Shown: positions 14,906 to 54,936 of the stretch, piece by piece | Numbering within the stretch: the first letter of the stretch is position 1 | How the letters are laid out: every line of letters starts with the position of its first letter | Assembly (NCBI GenBank): GCA_001777665.1 | Contig: MFEQ01000004.1 | Coordinates: 64,679 to 128,678 of the forward strand | Reading direction: 5' to 3' | DNA from: Candidatus Doudnabacteria bacterium RIFCSPHIGHO2_02_FULL_42_25 | GTDB lineage: Bacteria; Patescibacteriota; Doudnabacteria; UBA920; O2-02-FULL-48-8 | DNA length: 64,000 nt | Translations under genes and position numbers: made by a program | The notes under the pieces: model-generated | The model's database searches: none | The model's input: the letters and a program-made list of their open reading frames with translations, nothing else | What the model was told of the DNA's origin: nothing

Positions 14906-16339
14906 TTACCCAACCTCCAAAGAATCCAGAATTGCTTGATTGGTATCAGGAGTATACTTTTTAAGCGGCACTAGATTCTGTCCCCATGCTGTCATGATCG
15001 GATCTATAAATGCCCACATTGCCTTAACTTCAGCGGTTGATACAAACAAAGTTTGATCTCCAACTATACAATCCAGCAATAGTTTTTCGTATTCTTCGAC
15101 ATACTGCACTCGTTGAGCTGAATCACGCAAAATAAAATCAATCGTTCGTGACTCTTTTACCAAAGTAAGCCCGGGTTTCTTTGACCAAAACTCGATTGCA
15201 ATGCCTTCAGTAGGTTCCAGCGAAAAAGTAATCTTATTTTTATAATGTATTCCGCCTGGCGGGCAAAAGCATTCCTTGGGATGTGCGTAAGTGACTATTA
15301 TTTCCTTTCTCTGTTCGTGCATCCGTTTACCGCTTTCGAAAATAACTGGCACGTCTTTCCACCGAGGATCGGTAAGTGTGCCTTTAATCTTAAAATACGT
15401 CTCTGTATTAGAATTCGGGGGAACGAAGGCGATTGTCTGGTATCCCTCATACTGTGCTCGATAAGTTTGTGATTTTATTTCCTCCTGTGTCAAAAGCTTT
15501 AAATTGTTTAAAAGTTGGGCTCTTCTTAAATGGAGAGCGCTAGCTTGAAAGTCTAAAGGGTAATTCATTGTGATAAACGCCAGCATCTGCAACAGATGGT
15601 TTTGTCCCACATCTCTAAGCGCTCCCACACCATCATAAAAACTTCCTCTATGCTCCACTCCCAATGTCTCCCACAGTCTGATCTCGATTTTTTCTATAAA
15701 ATCCTTGTTCCAGGTCTTTTCAAAAATATCATTTGAAAACCGAAAGGTTAAAATATTTTGCACCATTTCTTTAGCCAGATAATGGTCAATCCTATAAATC
15801 TTGTTTTCTGCAAATAGATTTCCTAAAAGACTATCGAGTTTTTCAGCGGTCTCGGAATTTTTGCCAAATGGCTTCTCCACCAAAATTCTGGTTTCTACAT
15901 CTGTATTTTCGGGTCGGTCGCTTAGCCCCGAAAATTTCAACTGTTCGAAGATACTCTGATAAACATCCGGAGGCACGGCCAGATAGAACAGCCTGTTGGT
16001 TTTTGCTTGCCACGGCTCTTGGATTTTATCCAATAATTCTTTCAACGCTTCATACGATTCTTTTGATTCAAACAAACCGTGCTGGTACGAAAACAGTTTT
16101 GAAAATTCTTCAACCCTTTTTAGATCCGCATTTTGGATTTTGGCTCGGATCATTTCTGAGACAAAAGATTGAATGCTTTTGTCATCGAATGGTTTGCGCC
16201 CGAACCCCACGATCCGGAATTTTTCCGGAAGAGCATTTTTTAAATACAAGTTAAAAAGCGCTGGTGCTATTTTCTTTGCAGTTAAATCTCCAGTGATACC
16301 CAGGATTATTAAAATAGTTGGTGTGTGCTTGTCTGTCAT
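14906..16339 (-). CDS. zwf: Glucose-6-phosphate 1-dehydrogenase
   Basis: GITGDL, EKPFG, RIDHYLAKE, DVGQNHLLQ. Start at MTDKH because the track extension overlaps a tRNA. Confidence 0.95.
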   Translation of the reverse strand: MTDKHTPTILIILGITGDLTAKKIAPALFNLYLKNALPEKFRIVGFGRKPFDDKSIQSFVSEMIRAKIQNADLKRVEEFSKLFSYQHGLFESKESYEALKELLDKIQEPWQAKTNRLFYLAVPPDVYQSIFEQLKFSGLSDRPENTDVETRILVEKPFGKNSETAEKLDSLLGNLFAENKIYRIDHYLAKEMVQNILTFRFSNDIFEKTWNKDFIEKIEIRLWETLGVEHRGSFYDGVGALRDVGQNHLLQMLAFITMNYPLDFQASALHLRRAQLLNNLKLLTQEEIKSQTYRAQYEGYQTIAFVPPNSNTETYFKIKGTLTDPRWKDVPVIFESGKRMHEQRKEIIVTYAHPKECFCPPGGIHYKNKITFSLEPTEGIAIEFWSKKPGLTLVKESRTIDFILRDSAQRVQYVEEYEKLLLDCIVGDQTLFVSTAEVKAMWAFIDPIMTAWGQNLVPLKKYTPDTNQAILDSLEVG

Positions 16340-36569: not shown

Positions 36570-36645
36570 GCCGTTGTAGCTCAGCTGGTAGAGCAACTCC
36601 ATGGTAAGGAGTAGGTCCGCGGTTCAATTCCGCGCAACGGCTCCA
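36570..36645 (+). tRNA. tRNA-Thr(GGT)
   Basis: GCCGTTG...CC-ATGGTAA-GG...GGTTCAATTCC...CAACGGC-T-CCA. Confidence 0.96.
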
Positions 36646-49484: not shown

Positions 49485-52400
49485 ATGGCTAAAAAGTTTA
49501 CGCATTTACATGTTCATTCGCATTATTCCCTACTCGATGGCCTTTCAAAAATCGATGCGCTAGTTAATCGCGCGAAAGAACTGGGTATGGAAGCCCTGTC
49601 TCTGACTGATCATGGTGTCATGTATGGCATAATTGAATTTTATAATGCCTGCCTGGATGCTGGAATTAAACCGATAGTCGGAATCGAAGCCTATATCGCC
49701 CCTAGAACGCTCCAGGACAAAGAAGGTAAAATCGATTCTGATTATTTTCATTTAACTCTGCTGGCCAAAAATGATGCGGGCTATAAAAATTTGCTGAAAC
49801 TGACAACTATCGCTCACATTGACGGTTTTTACTACAAACCGCGGATTGATTTGGAAACTTTAAAGCAGCATTCGGAAGGTTTGATTTGTCTTTCCGGTTG
49901 TATGCGGGGAGAACTTTCCCGAGCTGTCATGAACAAATCCGAGACAGAAATTCAATCTGTTTTAAAAAAACATTTAGATATTTTTGGCCCGGATAATTAT
50001 TACATCGAGATTCAGCGAAATGGTAAAGGCTCAAACACCCAAGACGAGCGAGACAAAGAAAAACAAACGCAGAAACTGATCACTCTTGCGAAAAAAGAAA
50101 ATTTAAAACTAGTGGCGACAGCGGATTGTCATTATTTATACCCGGAAGATAGTGAAGCCCAGGATGTCTTGATTTGTATTGGAACCGGCAAAACCATCAA
50201 TGATCCAGATCGGCTGGACATGCGGGGCTGGGATCTGTCATTAAAATCTGAAGAAGAAATGCTAGAGCATTTCCAGGATATTCCCGAAGCTGTTTTGAAT
50301 ACTGTGGAAGTCGCTGAAAAATGTGATTTAAAACTCCTTCTCAATCAGCGATACTTTCCACAAGTCGAACTTCCGGCTGGCAAAACCTCTGCCGAACATT
50401 TACGAGACCTGACTTATGCGAAAGCAATTCCTTTCTATAGTAAAGATGGAGTCATTCCTGAAGAAATTCAAAAACGCATCGACTACGAACTCGATATTAT
50501 TATCAAAAAAGGTTTTGATACTTATTTTTTGATGGTAGCTGATGTCGTCGAAGGCGCTCATAAAATTGGGGCGATTACAAATACCAGGGGGAGTGCTGCT
50601 GGTAGTATTGTCGGTCGTATTTTAGGAATTACTAATGTCGACCCTTTATATTATGAACTGCCTTTTGAGCGATTTTTAACGGAACACAGACCGACTCCTC
50701 CTGATATTGATTTGGATATTGCTGACAATCATCGCGATGAGGCTATTGAATACATCACGAAAAGATACGGCCAAGATAAAGTTGCCCAAATCATTACGTT
50801 TGGAACGATGATGGCCAGGGCTGCTATCCGCGATGTCGGTCGTGCTCTAGGTGTTCCATACAGTAAATGTGATCAGATCGCCAAAATGATTCCTTTCGGG
50901 AAACAAGGATTCCACATGACGCTAGACAAAGCCGTGGATATTAACCCTGATTTGAAAGCAGCCTACGATAAAGACCCAGAAACGAAAAGAATTTTAGACA
51001 TTGCCAAAAGATTAGAAGGATGCGCCAGACACGCATCAGTCCATGCTGCGGGAATTGTTATCACACCTACGGCTTTGACTGACTATATTCCTCTACAATT
51101 TGAACCCGATGGCAATCGTACTATTACTCAATACGACATGTACGCTTTGGATTTGAATGCCAATGCCAAAGCAATTGGTGTGGTCAAATTGGATCTTTTG
51201 GGAATTCGCAACCTTTCTATTTTGGAAGCTGCGGTGCGGATAGCGCAGAAGCGCCATGATGTCACGATAGATATTTATAATCTCCCCCACCCGGATAAAA
51301 AAACTTTTAAACTACTTTCTGAAGGTCATACTTTTGGCGTGTTCCAAATGGGATCATCAGGCATGACTCGTTATCTGATGGAACTCCGGCCGAACAGTAT
51401 TTTCGATATCATGGCCATGATTGCCCTTTATCGACCAGGGCCGATGCAATTTATCCCCGACTATATCAAACGCAAACATAATCCACGACTGGTCAGTTAC
51501 ATGGATCCAGCACTCGAGAAAATTTTACATCGAACTTACGGAATTTTGGTTTATCAGGACGATCTCCTGACGATTGCTCATGATTTGGCCGGCTATTCGT
51601 GGGAAGAAGTTGATAAATTCCGTAAAGCTGTCGGTAAAAAAATTCCCGCCGAAATGGCCAAGCAAAAAGAAAAATTTATCAACGGTTGTATGCAAACTGT
51701 GAATTGGAGCAAAGATAAAGCTGCTGAAATTTGGGCTTGGATTGAGCCCTTCGCTGCATATGGTTTCAATAAATCACACTCCGCTTCCTACTGTGTCGTC
51801 AGTTATCAAACCGCTTACATGAAAGCCAACTATACTGTGGAATTTATGGCTGCTCTCATGACCGCTGAATCCGGCGATCTTCCCACAATATCCGAAGCTG
51901 TGGAAGAATGTAAAAAATTAAATATTGAAGTACTTCCTCCTGATGTCAATGAAAGTTTGGCCAATTTTACTGTAGTAGATGAGAGTCACATTCGGTTCGG
52001 ATTGTCTGCAATTAAAAATTTGGGTTCTGATGTGGTTGGGATTATTATTGAACAACGGAAACAATCTGGAAAATTCACCTCGATTGAAGACTTCGTCAAA
52101 AGAATTCAGACCCGCAATTTCAACAAAAAATCCTGGGAAGCCTTGGCCAAATCAGGAGCCTTGGATTCATTGGGCGAACGCAATCAATTATTAGCCAATA
52201 CTGAAGTTCTCCTAGAATTTGCCCGAAGCTTTGGGAAAACCGAAAACCAAGCATCTTTGTTCGGGGCTGAACTCATGCCTGCATCTGCACTCAAGCTTCG
52301 CGAAGTGGAAGCCGCGACCAAAAAAGAAATGCTTGGCTGGGAAAAAGAATTACTCGGCCTCTATGTCAGCGCTCACCCGATGGAAGAATATGTAGAACAA

Positions 52401-52916
52401 CTGAAAAAAATCGCCAAACCGATCAAAGAAGTGATAGAAAATAAAATCGCGAATACTACTATCGGTGGCATCGTAACTAGAGTTCAGAAAATCTTGACCA
52501 GAAAAGGCGAACAGATGGCATTCATCGATTTGGAAGATTTGGGAGGCCTCATCGAACTCGTTGTCTTCCCCGGGATCTATAACAAACACAATGACCTTTT
52601 AGTCGAAGGTAAAATTGTGCTGGCCACTGGAAAACTTTCTGACAAAGATGGAGAGCCTAAATTCCTAGTGGATGATATGCGAGAATTTGGACAGCAATCA
52701 ATTCCACAAGAACCACAGTCTGTGACTATCAAAATCCCAGAAGCTGCGACTGATGAATTATTTGCCCAACTAAAAACACTTTTTGAATCTGCTCCAGGTG
52801 ACATGAGCGTAAATCTCATGATCCGAGAGCAAAAAGTCAAAACACCTTTTCGAATCAACCTTGACGATGAGCTTAAGGTTAAAATCAAGGCACTGCTCGG
52901 GAACAATTTGCAATAA
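49485..52916 (+). CDS. dnaE: DNA polymerase III alpha subunit
   Basis: HLHVHSHYSLLDG, RGSAAGS, PDIDLD, YGFNKSH; ATG 6 nt after TATAAT. Confidence 0.97.
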   Translation: MAKKFTHLHVHSHYSLLDGLSKIDALVNRAKELGMEALSLTDHGVMYGIIEFYNACLDAGIKPIVGIEAYIAPRTLQDKEGKIDSDYFHLTLLAKNDAGYKNLLKLTTIAHIDGFYYKPRIDLETLKQHSEGLICLSGCMRGELSRAVMNKSETEIQSVLKKHLDIFGPDNYYIEIQRNGKGSNTQDERDKEKQTQKLITLAKKENLKLVATADCHYLYPEDSEAQDVLICIGTGKTINDPDRLDMRGWDLSLKSEEEMLEHFQDIPEAVLNTVEVAEKCDLKLLLNQRYFPQVELPAGKTSAEHLRDLTYAKAIPFYSKDGVIPEEIQKRIDYELDIIIKKGFDTYFLMVADVVEGAHKIGAITNTRGSAAGSIVGRILGITNVDPLYYELPFERFLTEHRPTPPDIDLDIADNHRDEAIEYITKRYGQDKVAQIITFGTMMARAAIRDVGRALGVPYSKCDQIAKMIPFGKQGFHMTLDKAVDINPDLKAAYDKDPETKRILDIAKRLEGCARHASVHAAGIVITPTALTDYIPLQFEPDGNRTITQYDMYALDLNANAKAIGVVKLDLLGIRNLSILEAAVRIAQKRHDVTIDIYNLPHPDKKTFKLLSEGHTFGVFQMGSSGMTRYLMELRPNSIFDIMAMIALYRPGPMQFIPDYIKRKHNPRLVSYMDPALEKILHRTYGILVYQDDLLTIAHDLAGYSWEEVDKFRKAVGKKIPAEMAKQKEKFINGCMQTVNWSKDKAAEIWAWIEPFAAYGFNKSHSASYCVVSYQTAYMKANYTVEFMAALMTAESGDLPTISEAVEECKKLNIEVLPPDVNESLANFTVVDESHIRFGLSAIKNLGSDVVGIIIEQRKQSGKFTSIEDFVKRIQTRNFNKKSWEALAKSGALDSLGERNQLLANTEVLLEFARSFGKTENQASLFGAELMPASALKLREVEAATKKEMLGWEKELLGLYVSAHPMEEYVEQLKKIAKPIKEVIENKIANTTIGGIVTRVQKILTRKGEQMAFIDLEDLGGLIELVVFPGIYNKHNDLLVEGKIVLATGKLSDKDGEPKFLVDDMREFGQQSIPQEPQSVTIKIPEAATDELFAQLKTLFESAPGDMSVNLMIREQKVKTPFRINLDDELKVKIKALLGNNLQ

Positions 52917-52936
52917 CCAATCTGAAGTCCTATAAT
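52908..52936 (+). promoter_or_regulatory. Sigma70 promoter of thrS
   Basis: TTGCAA-17-TATAAT. Confidence 0.8.
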
Positions 52937-52951
52937 AATCTTAAGTTTTTG

Positions 52952-53110
52952 AAAGCGATGCTTGTCCGCCGTAGCCTTGGCGGAGGCGGAAAACGGCTAC
53001 CAACCGTGGAGCTTTCTCGAGAACTTGCCTCGTTATGCAAGAAATGAAGATAAAGTTTTGGGTGGAAACGTCCTCCTGGACCCCAAGCATCAGTGCTTGG
53101 ATTTTTTATT
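52952..53110 (+). ncRNA. Thr T-box riboswitch (transcriptional, short Stem I)
   Basis: ACC specifier at 52999-53001; antiterminator TTGGG-TGGAAAC-GTCC/GGAC-CCCAA; terminator CCAAGCA/TGCTTGG plus T-run. Confidence 0.78.
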
Positions 53111-53123
53111 AACCTATATAACT

Positions 53124-54356
53124 ATGAGCGAACAAGAACACGATCACAAAATTTTAGGACCGAAACTCGACCTGTTTACCTTTTCAGATGCAGTAGGCAA
53201 AGGGTTGCCGCTGTTTACAGCCAAAGGTGCCACAGTTCGACGGGAATTGGAACGCTTTATAGTCGATGAAGAAATCAAACGCGGCTACCAACACGTTATA
53301 ACTCCCGACATCGCAAAGCTGGATCTCTACCGTAAATCCGGACATTATCCGCATTACAAAGATTCCATGTACGCCCCGATCAAAGTCGAAGATGAAGAGT
53401 TTATGCTACGCCCTATGACCTGTCCTCACCACTTTGAACTTTATCTTCGCAAACCGGTAAGCTACCGAGAGCTTCCTATGAGGATCGCGGAGGTGGCAAA
53501 ACTTTATCGCTTTGAGCAATCTGGTGAGCTTATGGGTTTGCAGCGCGTTCGTAGTTTTTGTTTGTCTGATGCACATATTATTTGCGCGAGCGAAGAACAA
53601 GCTACTGATGAAGCTTCTCAAGCTCTAGATTTGATTGAATACGTAACGGGAGTGCTTGGTTTAACTCATGGGAAAGACTATTGGTACAGACTTTCTCTGG
53701 GTGATCGAAGTAACAAAGAAAAATATTATAAAAATGACGCGGCTTGGGAAAAGGGTGAGGAGTTGCTTCGACAAATGCTTCAAAAACGAGGTCAAAAATT
53801 TGATGAAGCTAAAGACGAGGCGGCTTTCTACGGTCCGAAAATCGATGTCCAGATGAGAAACGCAAATGGTAAAGAAGATACCGCTTTTACAGTCCAGTAC
53901 GACTTCTGCATGCCTGATCGATTTGATCTAACTTACGTAGGTCCAGACGGCGAATCGAAACGAGCATTTGTAGTTCACCGCTCCTCCATTGGCGCGATTG
54001 AACGAATCATGGCATTTTTGATTGAACGGTATGCCGGCGCTTTTCCGGTTTGGCTGTCCCCTATACAAGCCAAAATCCTGCCGATCTCGGATAAGCTAAA
54101 TAAATATGCTCAAGAGTTAACTCTAGAGTTAAAAAAACATGATATCCGGGTAGAACTTGATGATCGATCAGAATCAGTGGGCAAAAAAATCCGTGACGCG
54201 GAAATGGAAAAAGTTCCTTATATGCTAATCATCGGTGAAAAAGAAGCTAAAGCAAAAACTGTTTCTATCCGTGGCCGCAATCAAAGGGATCTGGGAACTA
54301 TGAAACTCGAGAACTTTATCAAAAAGATTTCAGACGAGATCGCAAACCGAGCATAA
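53124..54356 (+). CDS. thrS: Threonine--tRNA ligase lacking the N-terminal TGS/editing domains
   Basis: Begins at HDHKILG; LRPMTCPHH, FYGPKID, HRSSIGAIER; 410 aa. Confidence 0.95.
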   Translation: MSEQEHDHKILGPKLDLFTFSDAVGKGLPLFTAKGATVRRELERFIVDEEIKRGYQHVITPDIAKLDLYRKSGHYPHYKDSMYAPIKVEDEEFMLRPMTCPHHFELYLRKPVSYRELPMRIAEVAKLYRFEQSGELMGLQRVRSFCLSDAHIICASEEQATDEASQALDLIEYVTGVLGLTHGKDYWYRLSLGDRSNKEKYYKNDAAWEKGEELLRQMLQKRGQKFDEAKDEAAFYGPKIDVQMRNANGKEDTAFTVQYDFCMPDRFDLTYVGPDGESKRAFVVHRSSIGAIERIMAFLIERYAGAFPVWLSPIQAKILPISDKLNKYAQELTLELKKHDIRVELDDRSESVGKKIRDAEMEKVPYMLIIGEKEAKAKTVSIRGRNQRDLGTMKLENFIKKISDEIANRA

Positions 54357-54480: not shown

Positions 54481-54936
54481 TCAGCGCGGCTTGGTCGCGA
54501 TCAACTTCGCAGGATCATGCATGCGAGTGAACGTTCCAACGAACAGTTCAGAAAGCGGTTTCCCTCTATCTACTCGTTGCATTTCTTCTTCTAGTCTTTC
54601 GTAGCCCTCCTTCATGATTGCCTCGTGAGCTGCACTGTCCTCACCATTGTGACTCTGGGCTTTCTCGATCTCTCGTTTGATCTCAAAAACAAGCTCTTGT
54701 CTCCGCACATCCATTGTCTGAATAACACGACCACCGCCCAGCTTAACTTTCGCTAACGCTAGGTAGACGGCACGAATATGCTGACCCATTGGATCAGTAG
54801 ATCTCGGGTCAAAGCGCGGTACCTGGATCAGGCCCGATAACCCGTCACTCATTTCCTGCGACGCCAAGTACCAGCCGTTGCCCTCCGCTTGTTCATACGT
54901 TAACTTGATGATCTTACGGTCACTGCTGTTAACCAA
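54481..54936 (-). CDS. GC-rich hypothetical protein
   Basis: SD GAGGTG before TTG; 151 aa. Confidence 0.6.
   Translation of the reverse strand: MVNSSDRKIIKLTYEQAEGNGWYLASQEMSDGLSGLIQVPRFDPRSTDPMGQHIRAVYLALAKVKLGGGRVIQTMDVRRQELVFEIKREIEKAQSHNGEDSAAHEAIMKEGYERLEEEMQRVDRGKPLSELFVGTFTRMHDPAKLIATKPR

Follow-up and report, generated by a model that had tools for sequence, protein, structure and literature searches.

As a rule, a T-box that acts on transcription needs the elbow platform of its long Stem I (PMC7583486, in the sections available), and the published T-boxes with a short Stem I require Stem II (PMC10482949, likewise in part). Can an RNA that has neither of these elements switch a gene in response to a tRNA? 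This question is raised by the leader of thrS in a CPR bacterium with a 0.85 Mb, 98%-complete genome. In the stretch of 64,000 nucleotides that was analysed (the window), the leader occupies positions 52951-53110, between dnaE (end at 52916) and thrS (ATG at 53124). An initial annotation had described it as a threonine-sensing T-box that joins an ultra-short Stem I to a terminator platform. Our work leads us to a similar view: we consider it likely, with a probability of about three in four, that the leader works as a minimal T-box riboswitch and regulates thrS through transcription antitermination.

The leader and its gene

The features of the locus are as follows.

36570..36645, + strand: tRNA-Thr(GGT), the predicted ligand, with discriminator U (tRNA gene calls)
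52908..52936, + strand: sigma-70-type promoter TTGCAA-17-TATAAT (sequence); its -35 box overlaps the dnaE stop codon
52951..52956, + strand: Stem I base helix (K-turn C-stem), pairs with 53011-53016 (helix 1 of the covariation set; 5 of 6 pairs vary on both sides)
52957..52960, + strand: K-turn bulge and first G of the G-A pair, split from the remaining motif by a repeat (family consensus, sequence)
52961..52990, + strand: 30-nt dispersed hairpin repeat (REP-like), inserted in the K-turn and outside the family consensus (genome copies, 5'-domain fold)
52993..53007, + strand: ultra-short Stem I top, 4-bp stem with 7-nt apical loop (helix 2; 4 of 4 pairs vary on both sides)
53008..53016, + strand: K-turn 3' strand (GGA) and 3' strand of the base helix (covariation, family consensus)
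53018..53041, + strand: Stem IIA/B pseudoknot (helices 3 and 4, 84% and 71% paired; 2 of 4 and 4 of 5 pairs vary on both sides)
53042..53057, + strand: purine-rich linker (sequence); at most three weak Stem III pairs in the window copy
53058..53086, + strand: antiterminator (helices 5 and 6; in A2, 6 of 6 pairs vary on both sides)
53083..53110, + strand: intrinsic terminator, 7-bp hairpin at 53083-53100 and U run (sequence, folding)
53124..54356, + strand: thrS, threonyl-tRNA synthetase, short form of 410 aa (TIGR00418, 489 bits, profile positions 169-564 of 565)

The promoter proposed earlier is found in the sequence at 52908-52936, and transcription would start near 52943. Taken alone, this promoter-like site is weak evidence, since the region contains four sites of this kind as compared to 1.6 +/- 1.0 in shuffled sequences; a -10-like hexamer is present just upstream of 18 of 24 leaders versus 1 of 24 control windows. 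The element lies 3' of this site and precedes an amino-acid-related gene: the downstream reading frame is indeed thrS (TIGR00418, over the cut-off). An upstream TTG start at 52962, from which the frame would run through the leader and the terminator, was dropped, and ATG 53124 was preferred because it agrees with the start sites of the short ThrRS relatives.

The encoded ThrRS does not have the N-terminal 170-200 residues or so, the region that we take to be the site of the TGS and editing domains. Its closest named relatives are Patescibacteria records, which makes an assignment to the CPR reasonable; it is 64-78% identical to the short ThrRSs of other CPR genomes (79 of 80 are also short), whereas its identity to most family relatives is only 42-52%. 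A tree of 49 rows, which included 20 of the 80 short ThrRSs, places it among the short forms (100/99), and the thrS gene behind a resident leader may have been exchanged. Convergent with thrS, at 54481-54936 on the minus strand, lies a 151-aa open reading frame that has no NCBIfam match.

The 5' domain contains a base helix (AAAGC/GCTTT) and a specifier hairpin (ACGG/CCGT, 52993-52996/53004-53007), both recognized by the initial annotation and both present in the sequence. The apical loop reads CU-ACC-AA, with the threonine codon ACC at 52999-53001 followed by A. We discarded CCA (Pro) and CAA (Gln) as readings of this loop, since the gene encodes ThrRS, the ACU variants among distant leaders keep threonine, and the variable bulge base suits U73 but would not suit tRNA-Pro/Gln, which have A73/G73. 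A repeat (52961-52990) that had been overlooked separates the base helix from the specifier hairpin; without this insert, Stem I would measure about 30 nt. The 26-nt core of the repeat is present in six genome copies at up to five mismatches, several of them sharing its left end. Short hairpin repeats with TCCGCC/GGCGGA inverted ends are dispersed over 26 sites in the genome, one of them in the tmRNA gene, and T-box leaders of relatives such as L020, L034 and L089 also contain similar repeats. When the 5' domain is folded alone, a three-way junction is predicted, in which the base helix has a probability of 0.78 and the specifier hairpin of 0.49. In the full-length equilibrium fold both are at about 0.05, and whole-leader folding is not unusual relative to shuffles (z -1.25), in a calculation that cannot model K-turns, pseudoknots, tRNA or co-transcriptional order. 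An alternative base helix via the repeat, which the model alignment had suggested, was discarded at a pairing probability of at most 0.01.

In the window copy, Stem IIA begins 1 nt past Stem I, and this leaves no room for a Stem II. The helix CTTGC/GCAAG, previously likened to Stem IIA, does exist, and only its identity has to be revised: it is Stem IIB (53024-53028/53037-53041) of a IIA/B pseudoknot whose Stem IIA is CGAG/CTCG (53018-53021/53029-53032). The pseudoknot includes an F-box-like CUCGUUA at 53029-53035; both F-box and pseudoknot were identified following PMC7583486 (sections available). As to Stem III, this element ranges from absent to a long hairpin across the relatives, and the window copy has no Stem III with an RRRxG...AA purine string together with a G-U pair at the base of A2.

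The antiterminator reported earlier, with its 7-nt bulge UGGAAAC at 53063-53069, is formed by A1 (53058-53062/53082-53086) and A2 (53070-53073/53078-53081). The terminator, which had also been seen to overlap it, uses the 3' strand of A1 and thus excludes the antiterminator. The calculated energies in the window are -15.4 kcal/mol for the terminator state and -9.9 kcal/mol for the antiterminator; being more stable by 5.5 kcal/mol in this calculation, the terminator would be the default, i. e. the switch would be off. A2 can persist in both states, unlike with the extended terminator described in the available sections of PMC7583486.

Conservation of the element and natural specifier swaps

We inspected 30 thrS loci, i. 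e. that of the window and 29 relatives, for the T-box sequence without requiring a terminator. The element precedes thrS at 25 of them (24 of the 29 relatives); of the five relatives without it, two are cut by contig ends, and in three (L010, L011, L027) thrS is located directly behind the preceding gene. For the alignment we used 18 of the 24 relatives and left the window copy out; L006 and L019 (long inserts), L014, L018 and L020 (unparsed or cut) and the near-duplicate L029 were also kept outside. In this alignment, 91.6% of the cells of the named structure are paired and 21 of 30 pairs vary on both sides, figures that lean upward because the alignment was already known when the structure was chosen and because kin are not independent. 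None of 500 shuffles paired as highly, and slid partners reached at most 49.8%. The alignment of thrS leaders that had been proposed as a check thus reveals covarying helices. The K-turn at the base of Stem I is present as a consensus across the family (5' side: G 17/18, A 18/18; 3' side: G 17/18, A 17/18) and is split by the repeat in the window copy.

A covariance model built from the 18 relatives, without the window, gives the window leader a score of 72.7 bits (E 2.6e-14), as compared to 13.8 bits for the second-best site of the 64 kb. The model matches 109 of 146 genomes of its class and 28 of 150 genomes of the phylum, and 21 of 143 outside the order. Most of the matches that were read adjoin ThrRS-like genes on their 5' side, and a match lies just upstream at 11 of the 80 loci of the closest short ThrRSs. 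An Rfam scan of 52000-54000 with E values up to 10 returned no T-box but three chance matches, and with RF00230 (score over 93 bits), 13 of 61 genomes gave weak matches, none of them over the cut-off and none in the genome of the window. A simple T-box pattern scan of this genome found the leader and one site within the miaA coding region and missed the T-box of valS. In the same order, longer T-boxes with weak RF00230 scores (50-70 bits) and variable Stem I lengths (L031-L037) precede, as judged by eye, proC-like, proB-like, trpB-like and aspS-like genes. At eight loci (L078, L080, L094, L097, L103, L111, L113 and L178), an unrelated open reading frame separates the terminator of the T-box from the synthetase gene or takes the place of the latter as the first gene; such intervening frames in relatives are nuclease-like or of no recognised kind.

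Loss of the ACC loop and the UGGN bulge in related leaders was one finding that the initial annotation had named as speaking against its own claim; both are kept, the bulge as UGGA. All 25 leaders contain a hairpin that overlaps with the 3' strand of A1 and precedes a U run, often far from the start codon (in L004, L013 and L019 it was read by eye, the automated pick being a wrong, longer hairpin). The conserved ACC and UGGA, the covariation and the ubiquitous terminators support, at the level of sequence, the proposed threonine-sensing leader in which a short Stem I would be joined to a terminator platform.

The strongest support for the idea that the apical loop is the tRNA-reading element comes from natural specifier swaps. 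We fetched 30 ileS and 30 valS loci and scored the 16 C-ending codons in hairpin loops by one rule. Antiterminators were found at 25 of 30 thrS, 16 of 30 ileS (one of them, L116, probably spurious) and 19 of 30 valS loci. The top loop codon was ACC in 17 of the 25 thrS leaders (next codon: 6), AUC in 13 of the 16 ileS leaders (next: 3) and GUC in all 19 valS leaders (next: 5); most thrS leaders missed by the rule have an ACC loop closed by a G-U or mismatched pair, which the rule excludes. Inspection by eye added GGC loops before glycyl-tRNA synthetase-like genes (L039, L083, L201) and the synonymous ACU in place of ACC in three distant thrS leaders (L176, L178, L180). The fourth bulge base follows the gene as well: all 25 thrS leaders have A at this position, and U is found in 13 of 16 ileS and 15 of 19 valS leaders. 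These bases match the discriminators in this genome, where tRNA-Thr has U73 and both tRNA-Ile and tRNA-Val have A73. The bulge UGGA was said to be complementary to the U-CCA end of both tRNA-Thr genes of the window, and this holds for all three tRNA-Thr of the genome; likewise, the gene for the tRNA-Thr(GGT) that ACC was said to match is confirmed at 36570..36645. A tRNA-Ile with a TAT anticodon is called at 58305-58379 of contig C3 of the same genome. This anticodon is unusual for a bacterial tRNA-Ile.

The valS gene of this genome has a T-box of its own (contig C8, about 16020-16235, L169) with a GUC apical loop, a UGGU bulge, a Stem II with S-turn motifs, a terminator, a repeat hairpin inserted in Stem I and imperfect antiterminator pairs.

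The variant bulge UGGAAAC is present as described; as a feature of a class it has to be given up, since 22 of the 25 close thrS leaders have UGGAACC and UGGAAAC is private to the window copy among them. Bulges that end in AAC are also found in 8 of 41 further thrS leaders (two of the 41 bulge picks, L091 and L097, are wrong sites) and in 4 of 19 valS leaders. Judging from these sequences, UGGAAAC appears to be a tolerated, recurring variant. In another group of thrS T-boxes, most of them in family f3, an 8-nt bulge starts with A-CGGA, the C of which cannot pair with A76 of the tRNA (L021, L022, L081, L087, L088, L093, L095-L096, L099-L101, L103-L105, L110-L113); CGGA is found in 17 of the 41 further leaders.

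A candidate mechanism and its alternatives

Based on established T-box chemistry (PMC7583486, sections available), the leader may work as follows: (i) the anticodon of uncharged tRNA-Thr(GGU) would pair with ACC in the apical loop. (ii) The free U-CCA end would pair with the UGGA bulge, and the tRNA would stack on A1. (iii) This pairing would stabilise the antiterminator and block the terminator, and RNA polymerase would read into thrS. With no tRNA or with charged tRNA, the terminator would form and transcription would end about 15 nt before the start codon. We infer tRNA binding, the sensing of charge and a grip at these two points from the anatomy described above, and we presume that the window copy works in spite of its repeat hairpin.

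It is this repeat that brings up an unlikely alternative, namely that the window copy is a decaying relic, its K-turn broken, that serves as a fixed leaky attenuator before a possibly replaced thrS. The 30-nt repeat sits inside the G-A motif of the K-turn; the AAC end of the bulge is unique among the 23 close leaders of the UGGA type; the encoded ThrRS clusters (100/99) with short ThrRSs from other CPR genomes; the three relatives mentioned above live without any leader; and the T-box of valS in the same genome has suffered a repeat insert and imperfect antiterminator pairs, too. However, the helices 3' of the insert (IIA, IIB and A2) are perfectly paired with sequence private to this copy, and the 5' domain is still predicted to fold into base helix and specifier hairpin. 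Moreover, AAC-ending bulges are found elsewhere, as counted above, and hairpin inserts at the K-turn position recur: L088 and L094 carry unrelated hairpins there (seen by eye). We consider it more probable that the window copy is a working T-box.

Is RNA alone sufficient? Stem II is missing from the family at large: S-turn motif pairs are found in none of the 17 thrS leaders with a parsed loop, as compared to 8 of 13 ileS and 17 of 19 valS leaders, and the earlier statement that no clear Stem II is seen stands. The IIA/B pseudoknot is absent from 5 of the 18 aligned thrS leaders, and in the shortest ones the specifier lies 38-40 nt from the bulge. Since Stem II and the elbow platform are both lacking, the affinity for the tRNA may be too low without a helper, and a protein such as an L7Ae-type K-turn binder, a Nus factor or ThrRS might replace them in sensing tRNA-Thr. 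Both known RNA reinforcements are absent (as listed in the sections at hand of PMC10482949), L7Ae-family proteins can stabilise T-box K-turns (PMC7583486, in part), and 17 of 18 aligned leaders preserve the K-turn even though there is no Stem II to position. We nevertheless regard such a helper as improbable: the K-turn is split in the window copy, in L088 and in L094, and no conserved helper gene adjoins the element among the loci that were read. In Escherichia coli, ThrRS autoregulates thrS by binding the leader via an anticodon mimic. The loop studied here displays the codon and not an anticodon mimic, which argues against binding of ThrRS in the E. coli manner.

Finally, the leader might respond to the amount of tRNA-Thr or to free CCA ends and not to charging, or it might act on translation. 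The G-U pair at the base of A2, which is the primary steric sensor according to Table 1 of PMC7583486 (source available in part), is present in only 3 of 25 leaders and replaced by G-C in the window copy; Stem III is reduced; one family has the 8-nt ACGGA-starting bulge that is unable to pair with A76; and the published short-Stem-I T-boxes are mostly translational (PMC10482949, in part). Against this, the partner of the UGGA bulge would be the 3' end of the tRNA, where the amino acid is attached, 25 of 25 leaders end in a hairpin with a U run, and no Shine-Dalgarno-like sequence was seen before ATG 53124, all of which makes this possibility very improbable as compared to charge-dependent antitermination.

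A possible fifth class of T-boxes

We cautiously favour the idea that the thrS leaders constitute a fifth T-box class in CPR bacteria, i. e. a protein-free transcriptional sensor whose contacts to the tRNA would be confined to anticodon and CCA end. Elbow platform and Stem II are lacking in this class, and the smallest members do without the pseudoknot, too. These smallest members measure about 90 nt to the end of the antiterminator. If true, they would be among the smallest natural sensors of tRNA charge, and the stated need for a platform or Stem II would be overturned. A widespread family that has neither makes this published rule directly testable, and the ileS and valS leaders of the same lineage, which keep Stem II, are ready-made natural controls. 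The element would also provide amino-acid-responsive gene control in CPR bacteria, regulation in which is described as almost unknown in the available sections of PMC11665869. That RF00230 misses it reveals a blind spot in Rfam-based annotation, and synthetic biology would gain a compact building block in a tRNA sensor of about 90-120 nt. No T-box of CPR bacteria has been reported in the literature that we found (subscription papers, the primary 2008 and 2015 papers and the data of TBDB were outside this search, and TBDB may hold such sequences), and the portions available of TBDB and of the main text of PMC12452182 do not mention Candidatus lineages.

Four T-box classes are distinguished in the accessible part of PMC10482949, and the thrS form fits none of them as described there, in agreement with the minimal new subclass that had been suggested. 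With class III, the actinobacterial ileS type of Nocardia farcinica and Mycobacterium tuberculosis, it shares a short Stem I without elbow platform, the specifier in the apical loop, the K-turn at the base (in the family consensus; split in the window copy), the IIA/B pseudoknot with the F-box and an antiterminator-type core (PMC10482949 and PMC7583486, sections of each). In the same sections, class III requires a Stem II with an S-turn, is mostly translational and has a loop of 5-6 nt, whereas the thrS form has no Stem II, ends in an intrinsic terminator and has a threonine specifier in a loop of 7-9 nt. The Shine-Dalgarno sequestrator of class III is absent as well, its place being taken by the terminator with U run. 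The ileS and valS leaders of CPR bacteria, with their Stem II motifs, are nearer to class III but have terminators. Class II, i. e. Bacillus subtilis glyQS, is transcriptional, lacks Stem II and has a K-turn at the base of Stem I, as does the thrS form (the K-turn in its family consensus); however, its long Stem I with platform and its glycine specifier are not found here, and the IIA/B pseudoknot is, unlike in class II, often kept without Stem II. Class I, the B. subtilis tyrS type represented by RF00230, has in common the T-box sequence, the antiterminator/terminator switch, the C-ending specifier and the aminoacyl-tRNA synthetase gene, whereas its long Stem I, double T-loop platform, internal specifier loop and Stem II are all absent, Stem III is rudimentary, the G-U pair is mostly missing and the terminator takes the A1 3' strand only. 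By analogy with these systems, the CPR thrS leader is best viewed as a combination of a transcriptional mode of working like that of classes I and II with a Stem I like that of class III.
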